Notes: generated by a model from the letters alone, not told the origin. A stretch of 18,454 nt of DNA from an uncultured bacterium (GCA_937889645.1 CALBZE010000083.1:1-18454); one strand, 5' to 3'. Shown: positions 2,065-18,454, counted from the first letter of the stretch. Numbers and translations: made by a program.

Positions 2065-3648
2065 ATGTTCATGCCGACATCCGACGCACGATCCGACACT
2101 CTCGAACACAACCCGTCGCCCGGCGAGACGGAATCGAGCGCGGCCGCGGGAACCCAGCCCGCGGCCGCTCGTCATGCCGAGCCGCCCTCGTCGGAGTCGC
2201 CGTCGTCCTCGCCCGAAGTCTCGGCGTCCGGTGGTGCGACGCCGCGGGGGGCGGGACGACGCTTCGACCGCTCGATCGTCGAAGGCCCCATCCTCCCGGC
2301 CGTCTGGAAGCTCGCCTGGCCGACGATGCTGCACAACCTGATCGGCGGACTGCAGGGGATGGTCGACCACGCGATGGTCGGCCATTTCGTGGGGTACACG
2401 GGGAACGCGGCGATCGGGGTGAGCCTTCAGATCTTCCTGGTCGTCGTCGTCTTCATCTCATCGCTGTACACGGGGATGGGCGTGTTGGTCGCCCGGTTCG
2501 CCGGCGCGGGCGACGAGGAGAAGGTGAACCGCACGGTCTACCAGGCGTTCATCACGTCCGCCGCGCTGTCGATCCTGGTCCTCGCGCCGGTCGGCTACTT
2601 CGCGGCGCCGGCGCTGCTCGGGCTGGTCAACGCCGCGCCGAAGGTGCAGGCGGAGGCGCTGCCGTACCTGCGGATCATGTTCCTGTGCAGCTTCGGCACG
2701 ATGTTCTTCTTCATGCTGGGCGGCGCGCTGCGTTCGGCGGGCGATGCCAGGACGCCGCTGCGGTACGGCGTGGTGGTGACGGTCGTGAACATCGCGCTGA
2801 ACGTGATCCTGATCCCGGGGCTGGGGCCGGTGCCGGCGCTGGGGACGGCCGGCGCGGCGATCGGGACGGCGCTGGCGACCGGGGGCGCGAGCCTGTACGC
2901 GCTCTACGCGCTACGCCGCGGGCGCTGGGTCGTCGCCTTCCCGCGCGGGATGAGCCTGAAGCCGGACTGGGAGGTGATCCGCGCGCTGTTCCGGTTCGGT
3001 CTACCGACGGGGATCCAGGGCGTGGCGATGAACGTGGGCGGGGTGCTGCTGCTGCGCTTCATCGGCTCGCTCGAGCAGAGCGCGGAGGCGCAGGCGGCTT
3101 ACGCCGTCGCCTACACGGAGATCTTCTCGCTCGTCAGCATGATGGCGATCGGGATCATGGGCGCGACGGCGGCGGTCGTGGGGCAGAACCTGGGCGCGCG
3201 GCGGGTCGACCGGGCGACGCGGGCGGTCTCGGTCGCGTCGCGGATCGGGCTTACCGGCGCGGGCACGCTCGGGCTGCTCTTCCTCACGATCCCGCACGTG
3301 CTGCTGGGCGCGTTCGGGATGACCGACCCGGGCGTCGCCGAGCTGGGCGTGCAGCTGCTGCGGTTCCTGACCGTCTCGAGCTTCTTCCTGACGCTGGCAC
3401 TCGTGTACACGGGCGGGCTGCAGGGGACGGGCGACACGAGGAGCCCGCTCTACATCTCGCTCATCTCGCAGATCGCCGTGCCGCTCGGGCTGTGCTACCT
3501 GTTCCAGCAGACGCGAGGGTTGGAGCCGGGCGACATCTGGCTCGCGATCATGCTCGGGCACATCACGCGCGGGACGCTGAGCGTGGGGCGGTTCAGGCAG
3601 GGGAAGTGGCGGGAGATCGTGGTGGACATCGGGCCGGCGCGGGCGTGA
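2065..3648 (+). CDS. MATE family efflux transporter (NorM/DinF-like) with an N-terminal low-complexity extension of about 75 aa
   Basis: gagga sits 8 nt upstream of the ATG. WPTMLHNLIGGLQGMVDHAMVGHFVG is a MATE N-terminal signature. About 12 hydrophobic segments. Residues 1-75 are S/P/E/A-rich and non-hydrophobic. Confidence 0.85.
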   Translation: MFMPTSDARSDTLEHNPSPGETESSAAAGTQPAAARHAEPPSSESPSSSPEVSASGGATPRGAGRRFDRSIVEGPILPAVWKLAWPTMLHNLIGGLQGMVDHAMVGHFVGYTGNAAIGVSLQIFLVVVVFISSLYTGMGVLVARFAGAGDEEKVNRTVYQAFITSAALSILVLAPVGYFAAPALLGLVNAAPKVQAEALPYLRIMFLCSFGTMFFFMLGGALRSAGDARTPLRYGVVVTVVNIALNVILIPGLGPVPALGTAGAAIGTALATGGASLYALYALRRGRWVVAFPRGMSLKPDWEVIRALFRFGLPTGIQGVAMNVGGVLLLRFIGSLEQSAEAQAAYAVAYTEIFSLVSMMAIGIMGATAAVVGQNLGARRVDRATRAVSVASRIGLTGAGTLGLLFLTIPHVLLGAFGMTDPGVAELGVQLLRFLTVSSFFLTLALVYTGGLQGTGDTRSPLYISLISQIAVPLGLCYLFQQTRGLEPGDIWLAIMLGHITRGTLSVGRFRQGKWREIVVDIGPARA

Positions 3649-4403
3649 CGGTGGTGGCGCTGGCCGGGTAGCGGCGGGGACCAGCGGCACGCTTCGCGTG
3701 CGGGCGCGGCCGCGCTGCGCGCGGCGGGGGGCGGCACCGCTTCGCGGCGCGGGGGGCAGCCGGCCGCTGGCGCGGCCGGCGGGAGGCGGCCCCTGCGGGG
3801 CGGGTGGCGGCGCCCTCGGCGCCGCGGGGGAGCCGCCTTCGGCGGCGGGTGGAGCCGGGCCTTCGGCCGGCGCGGGAGGGTGGCGGCCTGGCGGCCGCGG
3901 GGCGACGCGTTCACGATCCGGATGAGCAGATCCTCCGGCGCCTCCCAGCCGCCGAGCTGTTCCACGTCGCTGGCGTACCTGCCGTTGCCCGAGGCGTAGT
4001 ACACCTCCTGCATGGTCGCGAGGTTCTCGAGCGTGGAGCGGATCGTGGCCATCGTCTCGGCCGGCAGTGCGCGGGTCGGCTGCTCCTGGCCGGCCCCGTC
4101 GTCCGCGATCACGCGGGTGGGGGCGCGCTCCGCACCTTCCAGGGCGTAGAGCTCGAGGTACTCGACATCCATCTCTTCGCGGCCGGGCCGGCGGACCCAC
4201 AGGTGCCCCTGCGGGCTGACCTTCACGTACCGATAACCGACCTTCGGGTCCGGCGGCGGCAGCCGGTCGATCGCCGCGTGCACGACGCCGCGGCCACGAC
4301 CGAGTTCGCGGCCGTCGACCCAGCTCGGATCGTAGAGCCACTCGTCGAAGATGAAGCCGCGCCGCCGGCGCTCCCCTCTATTGCCGTCGCACGTCCAGCT
4401 CAC
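3495..4403 (-). CDS. Hypothetical protein; boundaries unresolved. Coding-like composition is confined to about 3906-4370, and the in-frame ORF reaches a stop only at 3495, after running through the hairpin array and 150 bp of the MATE 3' end
   Basis: Strong GC3 periodicity across FIFDEWLYDPSWVDG...ATMQEVYYASGNGRYASDVEQLGGWEAPEDLLIRIVNAS. No ATG is present; candidate GTG starts are at 4403 and 4283. The P/R/A-rich tail is encoded by the hairpin array and is probably not genuine. Confidence 0.3.
   Translation of the reverse strand: MSWTCDGNRGERRRRGFIFDEWLYDPSWVDGRELGRGRGVVHAAIDRLPPPDPKVGYRYVKVSPQGHLWVRRPGREEMDVEYLELYALEGAERAPTRVIADDGAGQEQPTRALPAETMATIRSTLENLATMQEVYYASGNGRYASDVEQLGGWEAPEDLLIRIVNASPRGRQAATLPRRPKARLHPPPKAAPPRRRGRRHPPRRGRLPPAAPAAGCPPRREAVPPPAARSAAAPAREACRWSPPLPGQRHHRHARAGPMSTTISRHFPCLNRPTLSVPRVMCPSMIASQMSPGSNPRVCWNR
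3680..3900. repeat. Array of 8-9 tandem GC-rich hairpins, each followed by a G-run (GGGNGG), in a convergent intergenic region
   Basis: Hairpins read directly: gcacgc-ttc-gcgtgc; gcgcggccgcgc (12-nt palindrome); ccgc-ttc-gcgg; gccggccgc-tggc-gcggccggc (9-bp stem); gcccc-tgc-ggggc; ggcgcc-ctc-ggcgcc; gccgcc-ttc-ggcggc; ggcc-ttc-ggcc; cggcc-tggc-ggccg. Each is followed by ggggg, gggtgg or gggagg. Confidence 0.7.
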
Positions 4404-4893
4404 CGCGCAGCAGCGTCGTCGGTCCGAAGGTCGGGCGGCCGAACGGGCCGGCGTCGACGGCGAACCGGCCGTCCAATCGGTACGCGACGGTGCGCTCGGT
4501 GAGGAAACGCACGGCGGCATCGGCCAGGCCGGGGACGTCGGCGAAGCTGATGGTGACGTCGATCGGGACGACGGTGTCCTGCTGCGCGCGGAGCGGGAGC
4601 CCGAGCGGGAGATCGACGGCCGCGGCGCGCGCGCCCTCGAGGAGCAGGTCGCCCTCCAGGGTGGAAAGGGTCAGGCCGAAGGCGTTGGGGTTCTGGACGC
4701 GCGTCCAGATGCGGATCGCGGCGCCGCCGAGCGGCCGGGTCGAGGACGGGCCGAGGAGGCGCAGCTCGGAGCGACGGTCTTCGGCCGCCTCGAAGCGCGG
4801 CGGCTCGACGCGGATCAGTTCGGAGACCGTCGCACAACCGGCCACGAGGAGCGCGGCGGCCAGCCAGAGGTGCGTATTCCGTTTCGGCATCAT
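4378..4893 (-). CDS. Lipoprotein with LEA-2 / WHy-like (late-embryogenesis-abundant 14-type) domain
   Basis: MMPKRNTHLWLAAALLVAGC has a lipobox LVAGC. An NPN-containing beta-rich domain (RVQNPNAFGLTLSTLEGDLLLEG...YRLDGRFAVDAG) resembles bacterial LEA_2 proteins. Confidence 0.55.
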   Translation of the reverse strand: MMPKRNTHLWLAAALLVAGCATVSELIRVEPPRFEAAEDRRSELRLLGPSSTRPLGGAAIRIWTRVQNPNAFGLTLSTLEGDLLLEGARAAAVDLPLGLPLRAQQDTVVPIDVTISFADVPGLADAAVRFLTERTVAYRLDGRFAVDAGPFGRPTFGPTTLLRGELDVRRQ

Positions 4894-4990: not shown

Positions 4991-5013
4991 CCGTGGCAAG
5001 TTATCGGCCACGG
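4991..5013. promoter_or_regulatory. Inverted repeat CCGTGGC-N9-GCCACGG with an AT-rich centre, in the divergent intergenic region between the LEA-like lipoprotein gene and the CPBP protease gene
   Basis: ccgtggcaagttatcggccacgg read directly. It lies 53-75 nt upstream of the CPBP ATG (5066) and about 100 nt upstream of the lipoprotein start (4893). Confidence 0.3.
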
Positions 5014-5065
5014 GACTGCGTCACCAGGCCCCGTCGCCGGAACCGAGGTACACACGAAGAGCGCA

Positions 5066-6022
5066 ATGGCGAATCGGACCGAACTCGCGACTGCCCAACG
5101 TAGGCGCCGACTCCGCCGCGCCCATCGACTCCCGGCCCTGCTGCTCGTTCTCGCCGTCGCGGCGCCGGTCGCGGCGCAGACGGCGGGCGACACGGTGCCC
5201 CGGAAGCCGAAGATCGGCGCGCAGTTCGTGATCCCGGCCGCGAGCATCGTTGCCCCCGGGCTCGGTCAGTACCTGCACGGTGCGTACTGGCCAGGCATGG
5301 GGTACACGGGCACGGCGGTCGGCGGGGCGGCGGTGGCCGCCTGGGCCGACGACGGCACGGGGTGGAGCGGCTTCCCGCGCCATGGGCGCGACCAGCTCGA
5401 GTACGAGGCGACGCACGTCGTCCAGTCGGCCGGGTTCCTCAGCGCGTGGGATGCGTTCCGGCGGGCGGTCCCGTCGCTGCAACGACAGGGGAAATACGAA
5501 TTCCTGACGACGCACGAGACGCTGGGCGACCTGCTCACGGCGCCGTTCGATCCCGAGTTCCTGCGTCGCCCGACGACGTGGGCGCACCTGGCGTACACCG
5601 GCCTCGTCGCCGCAATGGTGGTCAGCACGCGGCAATCGGGCGTCGCGTACGAGCCGTTCCGTGCGCAGGACGCGGCGTTTGCGACGTCGCTCTCGTACAA
5701 CGCCGGCGTGAGCGAGGAAGCGCTCTTCCGCGGGTGGCTGTTCCCGGTCCTGTACCAGAACATGGGCCAGCGGTTCTGGCTCTCGAACGCGGCCCAGGCC
5801 GGGATCTTCGGTGCGCTGCACCTCGAGCAGGCGGGCGCGTTCGCGGCGGCGATCACCGCGTGGGCGCTTTACGAAGGGTGGCTGACGCGCCGCAACGATT
5901 GGAGCATCCGGGAGTCGATCTTCCACCACTTCTGGTACGACGTGGCGGCGGTCGTGGTGCAGATGCTGGTGGAGGAGCGCGGCCGTGGGGTTGGGGTCAC
6001 GGTGCCGGTGGTGAGGTTTTGA
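5066..6022 (+). CDS. CPBP family intramembrane glutamic endopeptidase (CAAX protease / bacteriocin-processing family)
   Basis: Three CPBP motifs in order within hydrophobic segments: SEEALFRGWLF (EExxxR), AGIFGALHL (FxxxH), IFHHFWYDV (HxxxD/N). Signal/TM N-terminus. The TGA stop at 6020-6022 abuts the heptad array. Confidence 0.8.
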   Translation: MANRTELATAQRRRRLRRAHRLPALLLVLAVAAPVAAQTAGDTVPRKPKIGAQFVIPAASIVAPGLGQYLHGAYWPGMGYTGTAVGGAAVAAWADDGTGWSGFPRHGRDQLEYEATHVVQSAGFLSAWDAFRRAVPSLQRQGKYEFLTTHETLGDLLTAPFDPEFLRRPTTWAHLAYTGLVAAMVVSTRQSGVAYEPFRAQDAAFATSLSYNAGVSEEALFRGWLFPVLYQNMGQRFWLSNAAQAGIFGALHLEQAGAFAAAITAWALYEGWLTRRNDWSIRESIFHHFWYDVAAVVVQMLVEERGRGVGVTVPVVRF

Positions 6023-6055
6023 GGGCTCAGGGCTCAGGGCTCGGGGCTCAGGGGG
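6021..6055. repeat. G-rich heptad array (GGGCTCA x4), left arm of repeat copy 2
   Basis: gagggctcagggctcagggctcggggctcagggggg begins inside the stop codon of the CPBP gene. Confidence 0.85.
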
Positions 6056-6091
6056 GTGTCGGAGCGTTTTGGGGGTGCGCGAGACTCGCCG

Positions 6092-6306
6092 GGCGGCCGA
6101 AACCTCTCTTCCGGCGCCTCCACCGGCGCCGGCGTGTGCAAACGCAGCACGGAGCGCCCTCTGCGTACCTGCCCGCAATATTTGCGCATGTAGGGTGGCA
6201 AACATCCCACCCGTCTCCCGCCTGCTGCATTTCCGCATTAGGGAGGGCAAATCGAGCAAGCGTCCATTCACACGCCCACTCTTGGGATGTTTCCACACGA
6301 ACGTCG
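6092..6306 (-). repeat. Conserved core of composite repeat, copy 2 (reverse orientation relative to copy 1)
   Basis: The reverse complement of 6092-6306 aligns with 115-320. For example, ggcggccgaaacctctcttccggcgcctccaccggcgccggcgtgtgcaaac is the reverse complement of gtttgcacacgccggcgccggtggaggcgccggaggagaggcttcggccgcc. Confidence 0.85.
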
Positions 6307-6311
6307 CTGGC

Positions 6312-6458
6312 GCCCCCGGCCACCCCGGCCGCTGCCCCGTGCCCCGTGCCCCGTGCCCCGTGCCCCGTGCCCCGTGCCCCGTGCCCCGTGCCCCGAGCCC
6401 CGAGCCCCGAGCCCTGAGCCCTGAGCCCTGAGCCCCAAGCCCTGAGCCCCAAGCCCAA
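6312..6458. repeat. C-rich heptad array: (CCCCGTG)x8 perfect tandem, then (CCCCGAG)x3, (CCCTGAG)x3 and CCCCAAG/CCCTGAG variants; right arm of repeat copy 2
   Basis: Read directly: ccccgtg ccccgtg ... x8 without interruption, then ccccgag x3 ccctgag x3 ccccaag ccctgag ccccaag cccaag. The - strand carries G4-type G3-4N3-4 repeats. Confidence 0.9.
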
Positions 6459-6497
6459 GTACCCGCGGCGGCGGTCATCCGGAGCGTTGCCCTCCCC

Positions 6498-6998
6498 TCA
6501 ACCCAACCCGTCACACTCCTCCAACCTCCCAACCAAGCGTCGTGCGCTTTCCGGTGTGAGGTGCGCGAGGTGCTGGTTGGTGAATGTGGGGTCGTCGGTG
6601 ACCTCACGGAGGAGGGCGATTCCGGGTGGCGCGGGCGGGAGCGGCTCGTCGGGCGCGTCGAGCTCGACCTCCGCGATGGCGAGTCCCTCCAGGGGGCCAC
6701 GGAAGATGTCGATTTCCCACCGATCGATCACGTAGCGGACCTTCTCCAGCCGCCGGTCGCCCGCCAACTCGAAGAGTGCGCGGGCGGTCTCTTCGTCGAC
6801 GCCGATCTCTACCTCGCTCCGCACGCGGCCACGGCCGGCTTTGATCGTGAGCAGGTACTGACCGTCGCGGGCGCGGATGCGCACGGCCGGCTCGCCGCGG
6901 GTGATGTAGCCCTGGCGGATCTCGGCGCGGCGCGACGCCGTCCGCAGCACGTCCGGCTCGACGACGCGGCACAGGAAGCGACGTTCGATCTCGATCAT
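6498..6998 (-). CDS. CYTH-domain protein (triphosphate tunnel metalloenzyme; CyaB / thiamine-triphosphatase-like)
   Basis: N-terminal MIEIERRFL matches the CYTH EIERKFL signature. About 166 aa. Its start overlaps the stop of the upstream ATPase by ATGA at 6995-6998, indicating translational coupling. Confidence 0.7.
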   Translation of the reverse strand: MIEIERRFLCRVVEPDVLRTASRRAEIRQGYITRGEPAVRIRARDGQYLLTIKAGRGRVRSEVEIGVDEETARALFELAGDRRLEKVRYVIDRWEIDIFRGPLEGLAIAEVELDAPDEPLPPAPPGIALLREVTDDPTFTNQHLAHLTPESARRLVGRLEECDGLG

Positions 6999-9900
6999 CC
7001 GGCCTCCGAGGCGAGGTTGGCGGCCGTCGACGCGTCAGGGGAGGAGTGCCCGGACCCGGTCGCGATGGTGCAGGCGGCGACGATGCGGTCGACGATCTCG
7101 ATCCCGATGAGCCCGCGCTCGATGTCGCGTGCGACCGCGCCGATCACGCGGGCGCGGACCTCGTCGGGCGAGAGCCGGTCGCGCGGGTCGAGGTAGCCGT
7201 GGCGCTCGAGGTATTCACGCAGCGCGTCGCAGGCGCTCGTGCGGAAGCGCGGGATCCGCCGCTGCTCGAGCGCGTCGATCAGCCGTGCGGCGTCGCCGCG
7301 GAGTTCCCGGCACAGTTCGTCGACGGCGTCGAGGAAGGCGCCGGTGATCGCGCCGGACTCGGCGAGCACGGCGCGGTCGACGGGTCGGCCGCGGCCGATC
7401 CTGGCGGCGGCGACGGCGGCCGCGAGCGCGCGGGCGGCGGCTCCGGCGCGGGCGTAGGCAGCCGCGTCGTCGCCCAGCAGCGTAAGCCCGCCGTGTTCGA
7501 CGAGGTTACGGAGCGCGCCCCACGTCTCGACGCGGAGCGAGAGGAGCCGATGGAGGCGCTCCGGATCGTCGAGAAGGTGCCAGAGGTGCGCCGTCTCGGG
7601 GTCGGCGTGGACGTCGATCGGCGGGACGCCGAGGACGCGGCCGTACTCGAGGTACGACGCGCCGGCGGGCGCGGGGATCGACGTCGCCGGCGGGTCGACG
7701 ACGGGGAGCGGCGTCGCCTGGCCGTCGCGGGCGATCCGCCGCACGTGGGCGAGGTCGATGAAGCGGGCGGGGACGTCGGGCCGGCTCTGGAGCACGCCGC
7801 GCCACTTTCCCACCTCGTCGGGCTGGGCGGTGAAGTAGAAGACCTGGCGGCCGTCGGCGGCGAGGGCGACGGCGGTCTCCATGATGGCGCGGGCGCGGTC
7901 GTCGTCGCTGTTGCCGAGCGTCTCGTCGAAGAGGAGCGGCAGGCGCGCGCCGGTCTCCTGGCTCTCGACGAAGGCGATGCGGACGGCGAGGAGGAGCTGG
8001 ACGCGCGTGCCGCTGGAGAGTTCGTCGAGCGCGCGGCCGACGCCGGTCGTCGTGTCGTAGGCGCGGAACGCGGGCGGCTCGCCGTCGTCGAAGTCGAGGC
8101 GGTAGCGGCCGTGCGTGATGCGGGCGAACAGCTCGCGGGCGCGGTGGAACACGTCGGGGCGGTGCTGGTCCCGGGTCGCGCGCTGGATGAAGCGGACGAG
8201 CGTGCCGGCGACGACGGCGTCGACATCCCGCTCGCGCGCCTCGCGCAACGCGTCGCGGGCGCGGGCGAGCTCCGCGAGTGCGGCCTCGAGGTCGTGGCCG
8301 CGCTTGGCCTGGTCGATCCGCTCCTCGATCCGGGCGATGCGGTCGCGAAGCTCTTGCGCCTCGTCGGCCTCGCCGCGCGCGGCGGCGAGGGCGTCGTGGA
8401 GCGCGGCGACGTCGTGCGCCTCGAGGCCGGGCTCGTAGCCGGGCTCGCGGGCGAGGCGATCGAGCGTCTCCTGCCGGCGGCGGGTCGCGTGGGCGAGCCG
8501 ATCGGCGGCCTCGCGGTAGGCGTCGAAGCGGTCGCACCAGTCGCGGACGACGGGTTCGTCGTCGGGGCCGAGGCCGAGGCGGTCGAGTAGCGCGCGGCGC
8601 TCGGCTTCGAGCGCGGCGATCGTCGTCTCGGCGTCGGCCAGGCGACGGCGCGCGTCGTTCGCGGCGGCGCTCGCCCGGGAGTGGGCCTCCCGGCGGCGTT
8701 CGAGGTCGGCGACGGCGGCAGAGAAATCCGCGACGGCGGCCGCGGGTTCGGCCCCGGGCATGACCCCGCACGGCACATACGGCGCGATCCGCTCCCACGC
8801 CTCGGCCAGCGCGGCGTCGAACTGCGCCCGCGCGTGGGCGAGCTTCGCCTCGACGCCGGCGACGGCCGTGGCAGCGTCGTGCCAGCGGGCGATCCCCTGG
8901 GCGAGCCAGACCAGTTTGCCGGGGTCGGTCTCGGGGCGGACGCCGAGCCGGGCCGCGATCGCGGCGCGGCGGCGTTCGAGGTCGTCGAGCGCGGGGTCGA
9001 GGTCGGCGCGCCGTCTGGCCAGGTCCGCGCGGCGGCGGGCGCGCTCGGCATCCAGCCGCGCCTCGGCGACTCGCCGTTCGAGGCGGTCGAGCGCGGCGGC
9101 GACGTCGCTCTCGGTCCAGCGGCCGGGCCCTTCGACGCCCCACCGGTCGAGCCGCAACCGTTCGAACTCGGCGCGGTGTACGGCGCGCGCATCGGCGGCC
9201 GCGGGTGTGCGGCGCAGGAAGATGCCGAGGATCACCAGGGCGACGAGCGCGAGCGCGATCCCGATGGCGCGCCCGACCCACGTGCCGGGGAACGCGACTC
9301 CGGCGAGCCACGCACCGGCGAGCGACGTCGCGAAAAGCAGCACCCCGATCACCACGCCGAGCGCGCGCAGACGGCGCTCGCTGCGCCCCTCCCCGGCCGC
9401 ATCGGCGTCGCCGCCGGCGCGGAGCCAGCGACGGAGCAACGCGGCGCCTTCCGCGAGGGCGTCGGCCGCCGCCCCATCGTCCGCACCGACGTCCTCGCCG
9501 AGCCACCGGAGCTCCGCGTCCGCCGCGGCTTTGCGGCCGAGGAGGTCCGCGGCGTCGCGGGCGAAGTCGGCGAGCTGGTCGATGGCGGCGGCGCCCTCCA
9601 CCGCGCCCGTCTCCGTCCACGCGGCGTCGATGTCGCGCGCGACCGCGTCGCGCCTGGCGACCGCGTCGTCGAGCTCGCGCTCGAGGGCCCCGATATCGCG
9701 GCGCAGCTCGTCCAGCTTCGCGGCACGCGCTCGCAGCGCGGTGATCGTCTGGTGCGGCACGCCGTCGTCGGGGAGTCCGGCGTCCCGGCGCTCGGCCTCC
9801 GCGGCCTCGAGGTCGCCGGCGGCGCGGGCGTGCCGTTCGCGCGCGTCGTCGAGCTTTGCGCGAATCGTCTCGAGGCGATCGGCCTCGTCGCCTTTGAGGC

Positions 9901-10603
9901 TTGCCATGGCGGCCGGGAACGCGTCCAGCGCGCGGCGGGCGTCGGCCTCGTCAGTGACGGCGCCGGCGTGCTCGATCGCGAGCTCGAGGAGGCGGACGCG
10001 GTCGGCGGCCCGGGCGGCGGCGGAAGCGCGTTCGCGAAGCGTCGCCAGCTCGCGCTCGTCCTCGCGCAGCTCGGCGTGGCGCGCCTCGGCCTGGCGCACC
10101 TTCTCGCGCGCGGCCTTGAGCGCGGCCAGCTCCTTGGAGCGACGCGATGCGCCGTCCTGCGCGCCGATCGCGTCGGCCGCGCGGGCGAGGTCGTAGCCGC
10201 CGGCGGACTCGCGGAGGATTTCTTCGGCGAGGGCGCGGTCCTCGGCGGCGAGGAGTTCGTGGAGCGAGAGGCGGTAGCGGTCGCGCGTCTCCGCGGGCGG
10301 GAGCGGCGGCGCGGACGCGTCCGCGCCGCCGCGCTGCCACCGCGCGCGCCCGGCCTCCGATTCGACGTACCACTCGTCGCCGGCGACGCGGAACCATCCC
10401 GCCAGCGACGCCCGGTCGGGCGCGGCCGCGCGTGGCCAGAGGAGCGCCTCGATCGCGCGCGCCGTCGTCGTCTTCCCCGACGCGTTCGGCCCGTGGACGA
10501 CGTTCACGCCGGGCGAGAGGTCGTCGAGGCGGTAGCCGCCGTCGTCCACGCCGGGCATGCGGCGGATGGCGACGCGTTCGAAGCGGAGCGCGTCGCGGCT
10601 CAT
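6995..10603 (-). CDS. SbcC/YhaN-like SMC-type AAA ATPase, membrane-anchored by two central TM helices, with a C-terminal extension of about 270 aa
   Basis: Walker A VNVVHGPNASGKTT at aa 33-46. Long Ala/Arg/Glu coiled-coil. Hydrophobic pair LGVVIGVLLFATSLAGAWLAGVAF / AIGIALALVALVILGIFL at aa 414-463 (nt 9215-9364). ABC signature/Walker B LDELSSGTRVQLLLAVRIA...LPLLFDETLGNSDD, then D-loop/H region. An extra tail of about 270 aa covers nt 6998-7810. Confidence 0.85.
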   Translation of the reverse strand: MSRDALRFERVAIRRMPGVDDGGYRLDDLSPGVNVVHGPNASGKTTTARAIEALLWPRAAAPDRASLAGWFRVAGDEWYVESEAGRARWQRGGADASAPPLPPAETRDRYRLSLHELLAAEDRALAEEILRESAGGYDLARAADAIGAQDGASRRSKELAALKAAREKVRQAEARHAELREDERELATLRERASAAARAADRVRLLELAIEHAGAVTDEADARRALDAFPAAMASLKGDEADRLETIRAKLDDARERHARAAGDLEAAEAERRDAGLPDDGVPHQTITALRARAAKLDELRRDIGALERELDDAVARRDAVARDIDAAWTETGAVEGAAAIDQLADFARDAADLLGRKAAADAELRWLGEDVGADDGAAADALAEGAALLRRWLRAGGDADAAGEGRSERRLRALGVVIGVLLFATSLAGAWLAGVAFPGTWVGRAIGIALALVALVILGIFLRRTPAAADARAVHRAEFERLRLDRWGVEGPGRWTESDVAAALDRLERRVAEARLDAERARRRADLARRRADLDPALDDLERRRAAIAARLGVRPETDPGKLVWLAQGIARWHDAATAVAGVEAKLAHARAQFDAALAEAWERIAPYVPCGVMPGAEPAAAVADFSAAVADLERRREAHSRASAAANDARRRLADAETTIAALEAERRALLDRLGLGPDDEPVVRDWCDRFDAYREAADRLAHATRRRQETLDRLAREPGYEPGLEAHDVAALHDALAAARGEADEAQELRDRIARIEERIDQAKRGHDLEAALAELARARDALREARERDVDAVVAGTLVRFIQRATRDQHRPDVFHRARELFARITHGRYRLDFDDGEPPAFRAYDTTTGVGRALDELSSGTRVQLLLAVRIAFVESQETGARLPLLFDETLGNSDDDRARAIMETAVALAADGRQVFYFTAQPDEVGKWRGVLQSRPDVPARFIDLAHVRRIARDGQATPLPVVDPPATSIPAPAGASYLEYGRVLGVPPIDVHADPETAHLWHLLDDPERLHRLLSLRVETWGALRNLVEHGGLTLLGDDAAAYARAGAAARALAAAVAAARIGRGRPVDRAVLAESGAITGAFLDAVDELCRELRGDAARLIDALEQRRIPRFRTSACDALREYLERHGYLDPRDRLSPDEVRARVIGAVARDIERGLIGIEIVDRIVAACTIATGSGHSSPDASTAANLASEAG

Positions 10604-11985
10604 GCGCCCTCCTTCTGCGCGAGCAGCTCGTCGAGTAGGAGCGCGGCCTGGCGCGCAAGCGCTCCAGCGGCGACGGCGCGGGCGTCGACGTCGTCGCCCA
10701 GGCCGAGGTAGGGCTTCGCGGCGTAGACGTCCTGGACCGCGGCGGCCGCGTCGCGGAGGAGCGGCTCCAAATCCTCCGACACCGCGACGCCGGCACCGAT
10801 CGGCGCGCCCGCGTCGGCCGGGGGCGCCGCCTTCCCCCTGCTCTCTCCTGCCGCACCGGCTGCGGTCGCCGCCTCATCCCTGCCCTCCCCGCCCGCCTCC
10901 AGCGCGAGCAGCAACCGCGCGAGCAACCCGACGGGGTCGTTCCCCTGTGCCAGCTCCGCCAGGTCGCGCGCCGGGCGAGTCCGGACCTCTACGCTCTCGA
11001 CGTACCCCGCGACCGGCCCGGAGCCGAGCTCGAGGTCGGTGCGGAGCGCCTCGAGCCGCGCGGCGATCGAGCGGTGCAGCGGCGTCCGGCCCACGACGCG
11101 GAGCCGGCAACTCAGGTGGCGGAGCGCGTCGCCGCCCGAGGCAACGTCCGCGAGGTGCGCACGCAGCGCCGTCGTCACGCGCCGGTCGACCTCCGCCGGG
11201 TCGGCCACGCCGTCGACATCGACCTCGACGGCGTCGTAGCGCACCGAGGAGAGCGGGACCATGCGCGCGCGGAACGAGCGCCCGGGCCCGACCTCCACGA
11301 TCCAGACGCCGTGCGCGCCCGGCTCGCCCGGGTCGAGCGCCTGCGGCGAGCCGGGGTAGAGGACTGGCGCGGCGCCGGGCTCCTCGAACAGCCGCGGCGC
11401 GTGGATGTGGCCGAGGAGCCAGAAGTCGACCGGCGCGGCGCGCAGCTCGGCGAGCGAGACAGGCGCATAGTCGCTCCCGGGCTGGTCGAGGTCGGCGTGG
11501 AGGAGGCCGAGGACGGGCGCGTCGTCGCCCGGCGAGCCGAGCGCGAACGAGCCGAGGGGGCTCTCGCGGACGCGCGCCTCCGGAAACGACCAGCCGACCA
11601 CATGGATTGCCTCGCCCCCGCGGCGTGCAGTCACCCGCTCCCAGCGCCCGCCGCGCCCCAGGAGCCGGAACCGGTCGCCGCCGAGCTCGTCGGCGAGGCG
11701 CGGGAAGACGTCGTGGTCGTGGTTGCCGGCGACGGCGACGGTCAGAATCCCGGCCTCGGCGAGGCGGCGGATCCCGGCCTCGAGCGGGCCGGTCGCCTCG
11801 TAGTACCGGTTCGCCTGGTCGACGACGTCGCCGCTCAGGGCGACGACGTCGACCTTCTCGGCGAGCGCGAGGTCGACGATCCGCGTCCAGCACGCGGCGC
11901 TCGAGACCTCGCGGCCGTCGACGTGCTCCGGCAGTCGCGCCGAGCGGCGGCCGATGTGAACATCACCGCAGCAGAGGATCTTCAC
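10600..11985 (-). CDS. SbcD/Mre11-like calcineurin-family metallophosphoesterase (DNA repair exonuclease subunit, YhaO-like)
   Basis: VKILCCGDVHIG, GDVVD, GNHD and GHIH motifs are the Mre11/SbcD phosphoesterase motifs I-IV. Stop and start overlap (ATGA) with the downstream ATPase at 10600-10603. Start chosen at the GTG at 11985 (VKIL...); the ORF track's alternative ATG at 12102 would add a 39-aa R/A-rich leader. Confidence 0.8.
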   Translation of the reverse strand: MKILCCGDVHIGRRSARLPEHVDGREVSSAACWTRIVDLALAEKVDVVALSGDVVDQANRYYEATGPLEAGIRRLAEAGILTVAVAGNHDHDVFPRLADELGGDRFRLLGRGGRWERVTARRGGEAIHVVGWSFPEARVRESPLGSFALGSPGDDAPVLGLLHADLDQPGSDYAPVSLAELRAAPVDFWLLGHIHAPRLFEEPGAAPVLYPGSPQALDPGEPGAHGVWIVEVGPGRSFRARMVPLSSVRYDAVEVDVDGVADPAEVDRRVTTALRAHLADVASGGDALRHLSCRLRVVGRTPLHRSIAARLEALRTDLELGSGPVAGYVESVEVRTRPARDLAELAQGNDPVGLLARLLLALEAGGEGRDEAATAAGAAGESRGKAAPPADAGAPIGAGVAVSEDLEPLLRDAAAAVQDVYAAKPYLGLGDDVDARAVAAGALARQAALLLDELLAQKEGA

Positions 11986-12156
11986 GGGCAGTCGGCTCGT
12001 GACGGTCGTGTGTTGCGGGGCGACGCGGGCCGCCTTGGCGCCCGGCCGGGGGGCGACGCGGCCGGTCCGGGCCCGCCGGGTCGCCTCCCCCTGGCGTCGC
12101 ACTCGCCCCCCAAGGTAGCGCGACCGGCTGACAACGGCACGGGTGGGGTCGCCCGG

Positions 12157-13675: not shown

Positions 13676-15775
13676 TCACCTCGCGGGCGGCGGGGTGGCA
13701 GCGGGGACCGCGAGCGTGTCGGTCGCGACGCGTGGCCGGGCCCGGCCCCTCGGCCGCGGCCGCGGCGTGCCACACGCGACGTCGCGCACCGTGGTCGCCA
13801 GGAAGTACTCGGTGCGGGCGACGCCGTCGAAGACGCAATCGGGGCGGTAAACGCGCCCGGCATCGTCGACGCGCAGCTCGAGCACCGACGCCGGCATCGC
13901 CCACCCCGCCTCGCCCCGTGGCGCGATGCGTCGCATGATCCGACCCCAGAGCCTAGGCGCGACGCGGTCGCCCGCCGTGCCCCGGATGATCGGCCGCGGC
14001 AGGTCGAACCCGATCCACACGACCGCGACCCGGCTCGGCGTATACCCCGCGAACCAGTAGTCGACCGAGTTGTTGGTCGTGCCGGTCTTCCCGGCCGCGG
14101 GGCCGCGGTACCCCGCGAGCCGCACGGCGGTGCCGGTCCCACGGTCGACCACGTCGCGCAGGATGTCCGTGATCAAGAAGGCGACGCCGGGGTCGAGCAC
14201 GGCCTCGACCTTCGGGTCCTGACGCCAGACCTCGGTGCCGTCCGGGCGCCGGACGACCGACACGATGCGCGGCTCCGGCCGGCTGCCGAGGGTCGCGAAC
14301 GCGGCGTACGCGGCGGCCAGCTCGAGCGGCGTCGCCTCCGCGATCCCGAGCGCGAGCGACGGGACGCGCGGGAACGGGCCGCGCAGCCCCATCCGCCCGG
14401 CGAGCTCCGCGACGCGGTCGAAGCCGACCGCCTCGGCCAGCCGGATCGTCGCCGTGTTGCTCGAGACGACGAGCGCATCGCGCAGCGAGATCGACTCCGC
14501 GTAGCGGCCGTCGTAGTTGCGCGGCGCCCAGACCCGCCCGCCGCCCAGGTCGCGGCGGATCGGCGAGTCGTCCAGCTGGTCCGCGGGCGAGTAGCCGGCC
14601 ATGATCGCGGCGGCGTAGATGAACGGCTTGAACGTGCTCGCCGGCTGGCGCCACGCGCCGACCGCGCGGTTGAAACGCGAATGCGAGAAGTCCCGCCCGC
14701 CGACCATCGCGAGGACGTCGCCCGTCGCCGCGTCCAGCACCAGGACCGCGCCCTGGAGGTACGGCGTGCCGTCCGGGCGGGCGGCCGCGGTGTCGTCGTA
14801 GACGGGGTGCTCCCAGGGGCCGTACTGCCCGGCTTCCATCTCCGCGAGGAGCGCGCGCAGCTCGGCCTCGGCGACCGCCTGGGCCCGCGCGTCCAGCGTC
14901 GTGTGGATCGTGTAGCCGCCGGCGTAGAGCGCGTCGCCGATCTCGCGCTCCATGTAGTTGCGGACCTCCTCGACGAAGTACGGCGCGAGGTCGCCGGCGT
15001 CGGCCGTCGCCTCCGCGGTCACGAGCGGCGCGTCGTCCGCTTCGTTCGCTTCGTCCTCCGTGATCAACCCCTGCCGCCACATCTGGTGCAGCACGACCCA
15101 ACGCCGGCGATACGCGAGGACCGGGTTGCGGTGCGGGTCGAGCTGGTTCGGCGCGGTGACCATCCCGGCGAGGAGCGCGGCCTCGGCCAGGGTGAGCGTC
15201 GACGCCGGCTTGCGAAAGTATTCGCGCGCAGCCGCCTCGATCCCCCACGCGCCGCGGCCGAAATAAATATGGTTCAGGTACAGCTCGAGGATCTGGCGCT
15301 TGGTGTAACGCTCCTCGATCGCCGTCGCGACGCGCATTTCCGCGAGCTTGCGGCCGAGCGTGCGTTCGGTGTACGGAAGCCGGTCGGGGAACGCGTTGCG
15401 GGCGAGCTGCATGGTGATCGTGCTGAACCCTTGCCGGACGCCGAGCGAGCGGACGTTGGCGAGGAGCGCGCCGAAGGCGCGTCGCCAGTCGATCCCGCTG
15501 TGCTGCCAGAAGCGCTGGTCCTCGATCGCGACGAACGCCGCGGGTACGTGGGGCGGGAGGGAGTCGAGGGGGATGATCTCGCGCTGGACGACGTAGAGCC
15601 GGGCGAGTTCTACACCGTTGCGGTCGAGGACGACGGCCGCGCGGTCCGGCACGTACCCGTCCAGCCGTTCGATCTCCGGGCACCCCCCCACGCCGCACCG
15701 CTGCCAGAGCAACCAGGCCAGGCCGGCGAGGGAGAGCACTCCCAGGAATCCAATGATGCGTGGCCGGGTGGGCAA
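13676..15775 (-). CDS. Class A penicillin-binding protein (PBP1A; GT51 transglycosylase plus transpeptidase)
   Basis: N-terminal TM anchor. GT51 motifs EDQRFWQHSGID and TITMQLARNAF. Transpeptidase motifs STFKP (SxxK), SSN and KTGT. Confidence 0.9.
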   Translation of the reverse strand: MPTRPRIIGFLGVLSLAGLAWLLWQRCGVGGCPEIERLDGYVPDRAAVVLDRNGVELARLYVVQREIIPLDSLPPHVPAAFVAIEDQRFWQHSGIDWRRAFGALLANVRSLGVRQGFSTITMQLARNAFPDRLPYTERTLGRKLAEMRVATAIEERYTKRQILELYLNHIYFGRGAWGIEAAAREYFRKPASTLTLAEAALLAGMVTAPNQLDPHRNPVLAYRRRWVVLHQMWRQGLITEDEANEADDAPLVTAEATADAGDLAPYFVEEVRNYMEREIGDALYAGGYTIHTTLDARAQAVAEAELRALLAEMEAGQYGPWEHPVYDDTAAARPDGTPYLQGAVLVLDAATGDVLAMVGGRDFSHSRFNRAVGAWRQPASTFKPFIYAAAIMAGYSPADQLDDSPIRRDLGGGRVWAPRNYDGRYAESISLRDALVVSSNTATIRLAEAVGFDRVAELAGRMGLRGPFPRVPSLALGIAEATPLELAAAYAAFATLGSRPEPRIVSVVRRPDGTEVWRQDPKVEAVLDPGVAFLITDILRDVVDRGTGTAVRLAGYRGPAAGKTGTTNNSVDYWFAGYTPSRVAVVWIGFDLPRPIIRGTAGDRVAPRLWGRIMRRIAPRGEAGWAMPASVLELRVDDAGRVYRPDCVFDGVARTEYFLATTVRDVACGTPRPRPRGRARPRVATDTLAVPAATPPPAR

Positions 15776-15848
15776 GTGGCGTACCCCCTGGGTCGCGGCG
15801 GAGTCGGTGCTTCGGTGGGGGTATGCGGCAAGGGGGATACCAGGGGGA

Positions 15849-15981
15849 GGGCTCGGGGGTTCAGGGCATAGGGCTTGGGGCTCAGGGCTCAGGCGGGCGT
15901 CCGCCGGAGGCGGCGGGCCGTTCCCTGAGCCCTAGGCCCTGAGCCCTAGGCCCTGAGCCCTAGGCCCTAGCTCTAGGCCCC
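15849..15981. repeat. Solo (coreless) copy of the composite repeat: a G-rich heptad arm, a spacer of about 30 nt, then a C-rich heptad arm, forming a long imperfect inverted repeat
   Basis: gggctcgggggttcagggcatagggcttggggctcagggctcagg | cgggcgtccgccggaggcggcgggccgtt | ccctgagccctaggccctgagccctaggccctgagccctaggccctagctctaggcccc. The arms are heptad-level reverse complements. Confidence 0.85.
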
Positions 15982-16011
15982 GGGGGCGGCGGTGCGGGGG
16001 GATGCCCCCGC

Positions 16012-17343
16012 TCAGTCGCCGCCAGCCACGACCGGCTCCTTCTCCGCCGGCGCGCCCACCCGCCGGGTGGCGGCGCGGAGGATCTCCTCGACGCTGATGC
16101 CGTACGTCGCCGCGAACTGCTCGAGAATCGAGACGGCGGCGAGCACTTTTTGGTTCGCCGCGTTGGCGAGGCCGTGGCCGTCGCCGGAGTCGACGACGAC
16201 GAGGCGTTCGACGTCCATGTCGCGGACGGCGTCGGCGGTGAGGCCGAGCAGTTGCGGGAGCTTTTCGGCGATGAAGATCGCGAAGCCGTTCGGGCCGCTC
16301 TCGATCTGTTCGCGGAGCGCGCGGAGCGCTTCGGCCTGCGCGCGGCCGGTCTCGATGATCGGCGCGGCGGCGGCCTTGGCGCGGGCCTCGGCGGCCTGGC
16401 GCTCGGCCTCGGCGGGCGCGACGACGTCGGCGGCGAGGCGCTGGCGTTCGGTCTCGACGCGGCGCGCCTCGAGCTCGCGGCGGGCCTCGATCTCGGCCTG
16501 CTCGGCGGCGACGCGGGCGAGGCGCTCGGCGGTCTCGGCGTCGCGGGCGAGCTCGGCCTGGCGCACGCGCAGGCGGTTCTGTGCCTCGGCGATCCGGATC
16601 GCGGCCTCGGCCTCGGCCGTCTCGGCCATCTGCCGGTACTCGGCCTGCATGCGACGGGTCTCGGCCTCGTTCTCGGCCTCGGCGACCTCCGCCTCCTTCT
16701 TCACGATCGCGGTCTTCTTGCGGCCGATCGCATCCAGGTAGCCGGCCTCGTCGGAGACGTTCTGGATCTTCAGCACGTCGAGCGAGAAGCCGAGTTTCTT
16801 GAGGTCCTCCTCCGCCTCGGCGGCTAGGCTCTCCGCGAACTTGAGCCGGTTCTCGTTGACCTCCTCGGGCGTCAGGGTGGCGAGTACGCCGCGCAGGTTA
16901 CCCATCAGCGTCTCGCGCGCGAGCGCGGCGATCTCGCCCTCGCTCTTCCCGAGCAGCCGCTCGACCGCGTTGTTGAAATCCGTCTCCGGCTCCGACGCGA
17001 TCTTCACGTTCGCGATCGCCTGCACCGTGAGCGGGATGTTCCCCTTGGAGAAGGCGTTCGAGACCGTCAGTTCGAGCGGGATCGTCTCGAGCGACAGGTG
17101 CTGGACCCGCTCGATGATCGGGATGCGCAGCGTGCTCCCGCCGATCACGGTGCGGTAGCCGACGATCTGGCCGTCGGGGAGACGTCGCTTGCGGCCCGTG
17201 ATCACCGCCGCCTCGTTCGGCGGCACGATGACGATCAGGCTCTTGATCGCCAGGATCAGGAACAGCACGGCGACGAGGACGACGACGCCGCCGACGATGC
17301 CGACGTTCCCGATGCTCTCCAGGATCTGCTCCATCGCCTGCAC
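16012..17343 (-). CDS. floT: Flotillin-like SPFH/band-7 domain protein (FloT/YuaG-like)
   Basis: N-terminal TM/hairpin. SPFH domain (IVPPNEAAVITGRKRR...LTVQAIANVKI). Long EA-rich coiled coil (AEVAEAENEAETRRMQAEY...). Typical flotillin C-terminus. ggag sits upstream of the ATG. Confidence 0.85.
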   Translation of the reverse strand: MQAMEQILESIGNVGIVGGVVVLVAVLFLILAIKSLIVIVPPNEAAVITGRKRRLPDGQIVGYRTVIGGSTLRIPIIERVQHLSLETIPLELTVSNAFSKGNIPLTVQAIANVKIASEPETDFNNAVERLLGKSEGEIAALARETLMGNLRGVLATLTPEEVNENRLKFAESLAAEAEEDLKKLGFSLDVLKIQNVSDEAGYLDAIGRKKTAIVKKEAEVAEAENEAETRRMQAEYRQMAETAEAEAAIRIAEAQNRLRVRQAELARDAETAERLARVAAEQAEIEARRELEARRVETERQRLAADVVAPAEAERQAAEARAKAAAAPIIETGRAQAEALRALREQIESGPNGFAIFIAEKLPQLLGLTADAVRDMDVERLVVVDSGDGHGLANAANQKVLAAVSILEQFAATYGISVEEILRAATRRVGAPAEKEPVVAGGD

Positions 17344-17432: not shown

Positions 17433-17978
17433 TCACGCGTTCGGCTCCTCGAGCGGAGCGACGAGCGCCGTGCCGTCCTCGATCGCGACCACGACGACGC
17501 GGGTCCAGCGCTCCGACCCGGGCGCGTCGGGGTCGAAGGCGCGTGCGCGGAGCTCGAACTCGCGGTTGCCGCGTCGCACGACCACGCGCCCGGACCGGTC
17601 CCGGGCGAGGGCGAGCGAGACGCGGCCCGTCGTGCCGACGAAGCTCTCGTCGGACGGGCGCGTGCCGCTGTCGTGCCTGCGCACGTAGGCGAATGCCGCC
17701 GCCGCGAGGGCGACGGACGTGAAGCCGACGGCGGCTGCGACAATCGCGGCGAGCGCCGATCGCGCACCGCCCCACATCCATTCGAGGAGCAGCCCCGTCG
17801 CGCCGAACGCGAAGACGAAGTAGGTGGCGTTGCGGATCGAGAAGATCCGGAACGCGTCGGTGTCGTCGACGTCGATGTCGGCATCGGCGTCCACGGCGCC
17901 GCCGAAGACATCGCCGAGGGCGGACACGGCGAGGAGACCGCCGCCGACGATCAACGAGAACCAGTAGAGTCCTTCCAT
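17433..17978 (-). CDS. NfeD-like membrane protein (YuaF-like flotillin partner) with a C-terminal OB-fold-like domain
   Basis: N-terminal hydrophobic helices. C-terminal GTTGRVSLALARDRSGRVVVRRGNREFELRARA resembles the NfeD beta-barrel. Sits immediately upstream of flotillin, as in yuaF-floT. Confidence 0.65.
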   Translation of the reverse strand: MEGLYWFSLIVGGGLLAVSALGDVFGGAVDADADIDVDDTDAFRIFSIRNATYFVFAFGATGLLLEWMWGGARSALAAIVAAAVGFTSVALAAAAFAYVRRHDSGTRPSDESFVGTTGRVSLALARDRSGRVVVRRGNREFELRARAFDPDAPGSERWTRVVVVAIEDGTALVAPLEEPNA

Positions 17979-18128
17979 ACGTCGAGCGCCGCGCCGACGA
18001 GGTGTCCCGGTGCTCGCGCGGTCGGCACCGGCGGGACACGCCCTGTCTGGCAGGAGAGGCAGGGCGGAGTTGGTTGGAATATGGGATGATGTGTGTGGGG
18101 GCGCTACGGGGCGGCGGACGGTCTGGGG

Positions 18129-18166
18129 GGTCAGGGCTCAGGGCCTAGGGCTCGGGGCTCAGGGGG
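18129..18166. repeat. G-rich heptad array (GGGCTCA/GGGCCTA), left arm of repeat copy 3
   Basis: ggtcagggctcagggcctagggctcggggctcagggggg. Confidence 0.85.
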
Positions 18167-18204
18167 GCATGGGAACGTTCCAGGGGGTACCCCGGTCTTG
18201 CCGT

Positions 18205-18420
18205 GCGGCCGAAACGTGGCACCCGGCGCCTCCGCCGGCGCCGGCGTGTGCAAACTCAGCACGGAGCGCCCTCTGCGTTCCTCCCCGTTATATTTTTGCG
18301 CATATGGGGTGGCAAACATCCCACCCGTCTCCCGCCTGCTGCATTTGCACGTTAGCGGGGGCAAATCGAGCAAGCGCCTATTCACTCGCCCACGCCTGCC
18401 AAGTTTCCACACCAACGTCG
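18205..18420 (-). repeat. Conserved core of composite repeat, copy 3 (reverse orientation, same as copy 2)
   Basis: Near-identical to 6092-6306 apart from small indels. For example, cggccgaaac...ggcgcctccgccggcgccggcgtgtgcaaac...ggtggcaaacatcccacccgtctcccgcctgctgcattt...gcaaatcgagcaagcg...tttccacac. Confidence 0.85.
18287..18315 (-). promoter_or_regulatory. Candidate sigma70-type promoter inside repeat core copy 3: TTGCCA -17 nt- TATAAC on the - strand, directed toward nfeD-floT
   Basis: - strand -35 is the complement of tggcaa at 18310-18315. The -10 is the complement of gttata at 18287-18292, and the spacer is exactly 17 nt. This is the only AT-rich patch in the region. The homologous positions in copies 1 and 2 are degenerate (TAGCGG; TATTGC with 15-nt spacer). 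Confidence 0.4.
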
Positions 18421-18454
18421 CCCGCGCCCCCGCCCCCCCGCCCCCCCGCCCCCC
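18421..18454. repeat. C-rich (CCCCCCG)n tract, right arm of repeat copy 3 (truncated by the window end)
   Basis: cgcccccgcccccccgcccccccgcccccc. Confidence 0.7.

Follow-up and report, generated by a model that had tools for sequence, protein, structure and literature searches.

Convergent G-Rich Heptamer Arrays Between floT and the PBP1A Gene of a Gemmatimonadota Bacterium Belong to a Known Class of Paired Intergenic Repeats

What kind of element occupies the spacer between the flotillin gene floT and the PBP1A gene in CALBZE010000083.1, an entire metagenomic contig (18,454 nt) from a bacterium of the Gemmatimonadota (hereafter the window)? The 236-nt spacer between the flotillin stop codon (16012-16014, - strand) and the TTG start of PBP1A (15775, - strand) carries two opposed arrays of G-rich heptamers (heptads). 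Such a pair might be the scar of a mobile element, a device that ends transcription, or a repeat without a dedicated role. The explanation we favor, and consider probable, is a convergent G-rich heptamer microsatellite pair around a short GC hairpin, a fast-evolving, clade-restricted repeat of Gemmatimonadota that is driven by slippage and insulates its neighbors only incidentally.

The pair itself was confirmed as a genuine feature. A first-pass annotation had described two opposed heptad arrays at 15849-15981, and the sequence, Tandem Repeats Finder, an inverted-repeat search, and folding all agree with that description; the placement between the flotillin stop and the PBP1A start is likewise backed by open reading frames (ORFs), Pfam, and the gene calls of relatives. 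Tandem Repeats Finder reported a period-7 array at 15848-15893 (AGGGCTC, 6.4 units) and read 15923-15980 as an array of the 14-nt dimer CCCTGAGCCCTAGG with 95% matches. The unit table lists GGGCTCA, GGGCCTA, and GGGCTTG. Within 15846-15984, top-strand (GGGCYYA)n faces bottom-strand (GGGCCTA/GGGCTCA)n across a GC spacer of 29 nt (15894-15922), one nucleotide less than the 30 nt first given. The pair is made up of the following parts.

15843-15893: left arm, G-rich on the + strand, reading GGGCTC GGGGGTTCA GGGCATA GGGCTT GGGGCTCA GGGCTCA GG.
15894-15920: central GC spacer CGGGCGTCCGCCGGAGGCGGCGGGCCG, with TT extending it to 15922; in the folds, the tip hairpin of the long stem.
15921-15984: right arm, with its C-rich side on the + strand; the - (gene-sense) strand is G-rich and reads GGGGCCTAGAGCTA, next (GGGCCTA GGGCTCA)x3, and last GGGAA.

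The first G tract of the right arm lies on the coding strand ~28 nt downstream of the floT stop. The left arm is C-rich and G-poor on the gene-sense strand (C 54%, G 23%) and abuts a sigma54-like box.

The inverted-repeat search joined 15857-15906 to 15911-15960 as 50-nt arms with 76% complementarity and returned additional 31-nt arm pairs with 81-84%. Folding bore out the proposed long hairpin or cruciform on both strands. As RNA, the - strand (gene sense) reached -103.3 kcal/mol (z-score, z, -5.4) and the + strand -128 kcal/mol (z -6.5), with 0 of 200 shuffles equally stable; as DNA, the values were -54.7 kcal/mol (z -5.4) and -48.6 kcal/mol (z -4.9). Either strand thus formed a single long imperfect hairpin (z -5 to -7). 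Canonical G-quadruplex (G4) motifs, as sequence motifs of the form (G3N4)n only, were present at 15832-15897 on the + strand and 15923-15967 on the - strand. Because an independent assembly (L019) gives the same floT-proximal 75 nt and relatives' contigs from JGI, ENA, and Logan assemblies hold analogous structures, the pair is not an assembly artefact. A search of the window against Rfam 15 returned nothing at gathering thresholds, and a permissive search returned only far-sub-threshold models of animal microRNA hairpins.

Is the pair what remains of a larger element? The window, at 73% GC, holds at least 4 convergent pairs in 18 kb. All four of its intergenic regions longer than 100 nt carry arrays, and none of its short intra-operon spacers does; canonical G4 motifs, convergent and on both strands, occur at every other pair too. 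The pair at floT/PBP1A is coreless ("solo"), as the first-pass annotation stated, and the other three are full copies whose arms enclose a core.

1-399: full copy A, with G-arm 1-91 (cut by the contig end), core ~92-358, and C-arm 359-399.
6022-6464: full copy B, with G-arm 6022-6057, core ~6058-6330, and C-arm 6331-6464 (19 units).
18125-18454: full copy C, with G-arm 18125-18168, core ~18169-18416, and a C-rich right arm.

The core of copy A is inverted relative to those of B and C, and this copy lies upstream of a + strand gene (574-1128). Copy B is located between the convergent Rce1-like and CYTH genes, with its G-arm starting inside the Rce1-like stop codon; an independent assembly (L029) matches it base for base, including all 24 heptads. 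Copy C lies upstream of nfeD, and its right arm (18417-18454) is cut by the contig end. In kind, the solo arms match those that flank the full copies; the solo right arm contains the 14-mer GGGCTCAGGGCCTA, which is also an arm unit of copy A. Both window ends (1-91 and 18417-18454) lie inside heptad arrays, and most related contigs (L012-L020, L023, L024-L027) also end in arrays, so these repeats fragment short-read assemblies.

A scan of public metagenomes with a core 20-mer added a single copy of the core (L023 3024-3296). The four copies measure 255-275 nt in alignment, more than the 215 bp first reported, and share 85% column identity. They contain nested inverted repeats, namely a CCGGCGCC-N6-GGCGCCGG hairpin, GTGTGCAAA/TTTGCRCA, and GAAAC/GTTTC. 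No ORF is conserved across the four copies, Rfam gave no meaningful match, and RNAalifold returned a covariation term of ~0, which leaves a structured RNA gene unsupported. Searches of plasmids, phages, and viral contigs gave 0 matches to the core, and viral contigs gave 0 instances of the paired-heptad pattern. Two candidate features within the core were rejected. A sigma70-like promoter in copy C (TTGCCA-17-TATAAC, toward nfeD) was negative in a consensus scan and is not conserved, and a small ORF starting at 249 in copy A is not conserved in the remaining copies, and its GC3 pattern is wrong.

Orthologous loci were then decisive for the history of the site. Homology searches and exact-protein look-ups recovered syntenic nfeD-floT-PBP1A-murE-sbcD-sbcC-CYTH loci from three further lineages, with FloT 92-94% identical. 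No core was found at floT/PBP1A in these loci (four lineages including the window, more than 10 contigs). Three of the four lineages carry coreless opposed arrays at this site, built from different heptads (GGGCTTA, GGTCTCA) and sometimes nested. L009-L012 are nested: outer GGGCTTA/GGGCGTA arms enclose a CCGCC pentad run and an inner pair, in which (GGTCTCA/GGTCTTA)n faces TGAGACC-type units. L021 has a different arrangement of G-modules and a long C-arm. In L024-L026, of the L001 lineage, an unrelated hairpin with a 13-bp stem is followed by a single (CCTGATA)7 array, and the G-arm is absent. The sense-strand potential to form an RNA hairpin is kept in every orthologous spacer with paired arrays (z -3.2 to -7.2).

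Array length changes quickly. L009, L010, L011, and L012 have identical FloT sequences, yet their inner arrays contain 10.4, 10.4, 8.4, and 6.4 units and their outer arrays 6.3, 8.3, 6.3, and 6.3 units, respectively. The differences amount to two or four heptads, i.e., 14-nt steps, and show that the arrays outpace even a single amino-acid replacement in FloT. Period-7 arrays were confined to the window and to loci whose FloT is at least 92% identical; relatives with 65-73% identity had none in ~123 kb, and L022 (82%) had none either. A scan of genome contigs returned mostly distant relatives, without synteny or heptads. In place of heptads, L022 has tandem repeats of 11 nt, GTCCGCGCGAC, following floT and others of ~37 nt preceding nfeD (4545-4644, 2380-2530), i.e., the two spacers that bear heptads elsewhere attract tandem repeats of other periods.

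Arms with variable centers were observed upstream of nfeD. Copy C of the window corresponds there to coreless nested pairs in L009, L010, L020, and L021, and the outer C-arm beside nfeD is orthologous. Because one site thus holds a core in the window and coreless nested pairs in relatives, the arms are the shared part and the center is the variable one. In L001/L024, this position holds a (GGAGTCA)n array and a different, AT-richer insert of 295 nt, and the C-arm is absent. This insert has three copies of GCTGAAGCCGGG and was found only there (L024 106-400, L025/L026 60-354, L001 1266-1560).

At the Rce1-like/CYTH site, copy B (site compared, 6022-6498) corresponds in relatives to a 52-nt spacer with a plain GC hairpin, GCCGCCGCCGGTCGCCGGCGGCGGC (L009 13773-13824, L011 11406-11457, L030 3357-3408). 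The arm-core-arm unit is therefore polymorphic for presence and absence. Alignment of copy B to the empty site of L009 gave no clean boundaries, so no target-site duplication could be defined; none is evident in the sequence at the solo pair either. As a side observation, the Rce1-like protein (window 5006-6022) is only ~61% identical to that of the L009 lineage, compared with 93% for FloT and 88% for PBP1A, so divergence along the syntenic block is very uneven.

The arrays follow consistent rules of order. At six distinct sites, the top-strand G-rich array always precedes the bottom-strand G-rich array, i.e., the arrays converge. Each lineage also uses its own heptads at several unlinked sites, namely GGGCTCA/GGGCCTA/GGGGCAC in the window, GGGCTTA/GGGCGTA/GGGGTTA/GGTCTCA/GGTGTTA in the L009 group, and GGAGTCA/GGTATCA in the L024 group. 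At two sites in L010, the variants are mirrored on the two arms, with GGGCTTA-type units outside and GGTCYYA-type units inside. These lineage-specific heptads and mirrored orders suggest an inverted duplication combined with a homogenizing or spreading process. The arms of the solo pair are unequal in length and only 76-84% complementary, which disfavors strong selection for perfect pairing. A further coreless convergent pair, (GGTCTCA)n facing TGAGACC-type units, was noted at L010 1355-1480. The genes on either side, for an MFS transporter and an MGS-domain protein, diverge from this promoter region, so that pairs also occur away from the 3' ends of genes.

Does the pair separate two transcription units? 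The neighboring features are the following.

16012-17334, - strand: flotillin gene floT (Band_7/SPFH; Pfam Band_7, E 5e-26), 440 aa as in the public record.
16012-16014, - strand: flotillin stop codon TGA, from the ORF list.
15994-16011, - strand: small GC hairpin GCGGGGGCATCCCCCCGC directly past the floT stop, with a 7-bp stem and a 4-nt loop.
15827-15842, - strand: sigma54-type promoter-like box TGGTATCCCCCTTGCC, with -24 GG / -12 GC spacing.
15773-15775, - strand: TTG start of PBP1A (gene 13676-15775), the first gene of PBP1A-murE-sbcD-sbcC-CYTH.

The floT product is 100% identical to the 440-aa record P0001; a 443-aa ORF was discarded as having the wrong start, the public homologous record being of 440 aa. 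The nfeD gene most likely spans 17433-17978, and a longer ORF was rejected as being in the wrong frame. PBP1A is 100% identical to record P0121, and its TTG start is backed by the gene calls of relatives and by a matching upstream GAGGGGG/CAGGGGG. The small hairpin past the floT stop (DNA -9.8 kcal/mol, z -3.5) is separated from the G-rich array by 12 C-rich bases on the - strand. Every related lineage has some GC hairpin right after the floT stop, with a different sequence each time.

The sigma54-like box lies ~50 nt upstream of the PBP1A start. TGGYAYN5TTGC has one match in the whole window, against a chance expectation of 0.02, and CCCCTGG[T/C]ATCC[C/G]CCTTGCC is invariant in five lineages with diverging flanks (in relatives, L009 ~4305-4320, L021, L024 ~2634-2649, and L028 ~9943-9958). 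The outgroup L028, with PBP1A 77% identical, keeps the box, has another gene upstream, and has no arrays. Because the box is unique in the window and invariant in five lineages, PBP1A-murE-sbcDC very probably has its own promoter, and the sequence of the box suggests that the operon is RpoN-dependent. The heptad pair occupies the stretch from the end of the nfeD-floT unit to this box, which separates it from the PBP1A start, in line with the operon boundary proposed in the first-pass annotation. That annotation had also offered an attenuator. If the box is the promoter, the pair lies upstream of it, and attenuation of PBP1A's own transcript is ruled out.

The suggestion of a large terminator fared unevenly. 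A hairpin does stand at the boundary, but a canonical terminator does not fit. A terminator scan of 15600-16200 returned 0 sites, no U-tract follows the small or the long hairpin, and the sequence after them is C-rich. The long hairpin and the G4 motif are also not conserved at the site, since L024 has neither a long hairpin nor a G4 motif with G3 tracts. All four floT-linked lineages have two things in common: the stop is followed by a hairpin, and the box is abutted by a heptad array whose sense strand is C-rich and G-poor. In the window, L009, L010, L021, and L024, the 70 nt of sense strand before the box (15843-15912 in the window) contain C 41-56%, G 10-23%, and 18-26 YC dinucleotides; in the same stretch of L028, where floT is not upstream, G exceeds C.

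SbcCD is encoded (sbcC and sbcD, window 6995-12102) in the operon that directly follows the palindrome. It is a nuclease that cuts DNA hairpins and cruciforms, and it could shape turnover at pair centers in a palindrome-dense genome; its adjacency to the palindrome is probably coincidental. Elsewhere in the window, 24-25-nt tandem repeats (3702-3876, 3-5 copies, 66-84% matches) lie inside a - strand ORF (3495-4520) for which Pfam gave no match, and they are probably a low-complexity region of a protein.

Taken together, these results point to the following model. Replication slippage would lengthen and shorten the arrays, and inverted duplication or gene conversion, rather than strong selection for pairing, would keep the two arms alike. 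The core of 255-275 nt would be a lineage-specific insert at the center of some pairs, and the solo pair would therefore be the empty form and not a scar. From the distribution across lineages, we infer that the arms, and the occupancy of these sites by pairs, are the widespread and older feature and that the core is a lineage-restricted occupant of the center; the solo pair at floT/PBP1A is best read as the empty, basic form. A transcript reading through from floT would form an imperfect hairpin of ~45-50 bp (-103 to -118 kcal/mol). Such a hairpin would hinder read-through into the PBP1A promoter and would protect the 3' end of floT, and this insulation would be a side-effect of the repeat rather than the work of a dedicated canonical terminator.

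The rival readings were weighed against this model, beginning with derivation of the solo pair from a full element resembling a miniature inverted-repeat transposable element (MITE), either as a pair of solo terminal inverted repeats (TIRs) left by excision or through internal deletion of the core, as in the short Correia forms. The shared arm family with its common 14-mer and the presence or absence of the full element at the Rce1-like/CYTH site would agree with such an origin. The check named in the first-pass annotation was for a full copy at the orthologous site, and none was found in four lineages and more than 10 contigs (relatives L009-L012, L021, and L024-L026). Coreless pairs are, moreover, frequent in relatives in which the core was not detected (0 hits in ~94 kb of near-relative, partly redundant sequence), a scar of this core would not explain nested pairs of other heptads, target-site duplications could not be defined, and no transposase was found in any locus covered (~18 kb of the window genome plus related loci). 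We therefore regard derivation from such an element as improbable, and of the two origins offered in the first-pass annotation, the minimal progenitor or empty form fits better than the excision footprint. A different role for the boundary would be that of the C-rich, G-poor sense-strand array beside the promoter as a rut site that ends floT read-through, with the G-arm dispensable. The base composition shared by the four floT-linked lineages, the excess of G over C in the outgroup without floT, and the retention of just the C-rich array in the L024 lineage would suit this role. However, pairing with the G-arm in the window would tie up the C-rich arm in a highly stable hairpin, Rho needs unstructured RNA, and any G-rich heptamer array on the other strand would trivially produce this composition, so that we give a rut site very little credence. 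The arrays might also have been selected mainly as G4 elements (G3N4) that block polymerase or recruit a protein, with the hairpin secondary. The convergent motifs on both strands at the solo and every other window pair speak for the G4 roadblock proposed earlier, and the G-rich strand is the coding strand ~28 nt past the floT stop, which is the positional rule of the Xanthomonas and Nostoc heptamers (PMC4692102). The roadblock falls short in conservation, given L024; the inner arrays of relatives (GGTCTCA, GGTCTTA) and GGTATCA of L024 have only GG runs, the G tracts are paired in double-stranded or hairpin form, and the Xanthomonas repeats themselves have no demonstrated function. Selection for G4 formation thus seems quite unlikely to us.

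The pair may instead be a neutral or selfish hypermutable repeat in a non-essential spacer, with no function and no effect of note on transcription. Sequence, copy number, and architecture turn over quickly at one site, one lineage does entirely without the pair, the arms are imperfectly complementary, and relatives manage with a simple 52-nt hairpin at the Rce1-like/CYTH site. However, strict rules at six sites and in Xanthomonas (convergence, and a G-rich coding strand just past stop codons) suggest constraint, and a read-through RNA hairpin of -100 kcal/mol or below is unlikely to be without effect; a wholly inert repeat is a possibility that we take seriously but consider unlikely. Several observations weigh against the slippage model that we prefer. 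Heptads shared at unlinked sites and mirrored nesting are unexpected from independent slippage and hint at active spreading or homogenizing. Rather than being passive products of slippage, the pairs could stem from a process active in this clade that generates repeats symmetrically, an idea to which we assign a low probability. One candidate process would be fold-back (hairpin-primed) repair of breaks at palindrome tips; in another, both 3' break ends would be extended with the current heptad of the lineage and then rejoined. Were it true, an active process would explain the constant head-to-head order with mirrored, nested variants and the use of each lineage's own heptads at unlinked sites, pair centers would be hot spots for insertion, taking up inner pairs or the core of 255-275 nt, and the floT/PBP1A solo would be the basic unit of a new self-propagating palindromic repeat system. 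The solo spacer also weakly resembles the central hairpin of the copy C core (19/22, a score equaled by 8 of 500 shuffles), and the L023 and copy C cores have at their left end the CGGGCGT of the solo arm junction, shared with the L023 core end, and the CGTTCC that lies further in. These similarities leave a deletion origin of the solo some small probability, and the polarity of core gain versus loss, which draws on few lineages with no clean outgroup, is not proven. Lastly, the insulating effect of the hairpin is pure inference; the pair has no U-tract, not every lineage has a long hairpin here (the L024 lineage has no second arm), and a terminator would have little purpose at the L010 pair (1355-1480), which lies among divergent promoters. 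With these points counted, the slippage-driven, incidentally insulating pair remains the reading that we hold to be probable.

Herein, comparison with known systems places the pair. REP, BIME, and REPIN sequences are intergenic imperfect palindromes at the 3' ends of genes or between operons, whose doublets form hairpins and are mobilized by RAYT; REP elements stabilize upstream mRNA, attenuate read-through, and are targets for the insertion of other elements. The heptad pairs are similar in being abundant intergenic palindromes in which two inverted units and a short spacer give a hairpin of ~100 nt, and insertion into REP elements parallels the variable centers of the pairs. A REP unit, however, is a conserved 20-40-nt palindrome with a GTAG motif, whereas the solo arms are heptad arrays without a GTAG-headed palindromic unit, and no RAYT gene was found in the loci obtained, which are less than the whole genome. 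Correia elements of Neisseria are MITEs with full-length and internally deleted forms. The likeness lies in terminal inverted arms around a core, long and core-deleted forms, intergenic location, RNA hairpins, and presence/absence polymorphism among strains. The heptad arms differ from fixed TIRs in being variable-length microsatellites without a defined terminus, coreless pairs occur in lineages without a detectable core, and no target-site duplication was found; at floT/PBP1A, full copies and empty sites are both lacking in relatives, which have other coreless heptad arrays. We know of no autonomous partner for the core-bearing pairs. REP/REPIN and Correia-type MITEs are thus functional analogies only.

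An intrinsic terminator is similar in that its GC-rich hairpin comes directly past a stop codon and ahead of the next promoter, but here the U-tract is absent after both hairpins and the long stem is 5-10 times the usual length. Among heptamer repeats, the cyanobacterial STRR sequences are intergenic, as reportedly described by Mazel and co-workers in 1990. TAACTGA direct repeats occur just upstream of start codons in Beggiatoaceae, Cyanobacteria, and Bacteroidetes (MacGregor 2015, PMC4679880). Both share tandem 7-nt units, intergenic location, and variable copy number with the present arrays; they are mostly single direct arrays, however, TAACTGA is not G-rich, and convergent pairing does not define them.

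The closest match is with the G-rich heptamer repeats GGGAATC of Xanthomonas and GGGGAYT of Nostoc (Rehm et al. 2015, PLoS One, PMC4692102). These are 89-93% intergenic in two xanthomonads, and their mean distance to the ORF 5' of them is 28 nt. Past a stop codon, within about 50 nt, the coding strand is the G-rich one; upstream of an ORF, it is the non-coding strand. Between Xcc and Xac, repeat length and sequence vary while location and type are kept, and each Xanthomonas genome has 70-75 convergent pairs of arrays, one on each strand. G4 folding of these repeats was seen only in vitro, by circular dichroism, and their function is open (all PMC4692102). The floT/PBP1A pair shares with this class the 7-nt units with a tract of at least three G and the convergent G-rich arrays, one per strand. 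All window arrays are intergenic. The coding strand has its first G tract ~28 nt past the floT stop; toward PBP1A, it is the non-coding strand that is G-rich, at 57-70 nt from the start and thus slightly past 50 nt. Location is kept among relatives while length and sequence vary, and L024 switches from a pair to a single array. The units GGGCTCA, GGGCCTA, and GGGCTTG depart from the GGGAATC/GGGGAYT consensus, and the setting differs in phylum (Gemmatimonadota), in GC content (73%), and in an often 14-nt dimer register. Nesting with mirrored order, lineage-specific heptads, and an enclosed 255-275-nt core are unreported for Xanthomonas, and literature searches found no paper on heptamer or G-quadruplex repeats in Gemmatimonadota.

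The pair therefore has every structural feature of the class described by Rehm et al. except the heptad sequence. Judged by sequence, it is of the same class but of a different sequence family, with its G4 character at the level of motifs. Our verdict is that it is a member of the heptamer class in a new phylum, probably not an excision footprint, and not a demonstrated dedicated terminator. Well-conserved and in front of the PBP1A-murE-sbcDC operon, the sigma54-type box is flagged alongside it. Since the arrays vary among strains with identical proteins, they could serve as strain markers, and the natural series of simple pair, nested pairs, single array, and core-bearing pairs provides comparative material for deciding between hairpin, G4, and neither. 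The class of paired G-rich heptamers extends from Xanthomonas and cyanobacteria to Gemmatimonadota, and such convergent pairs at the borders of operons may thus be a solution or a by-product that recurs among high-GC bacteria.

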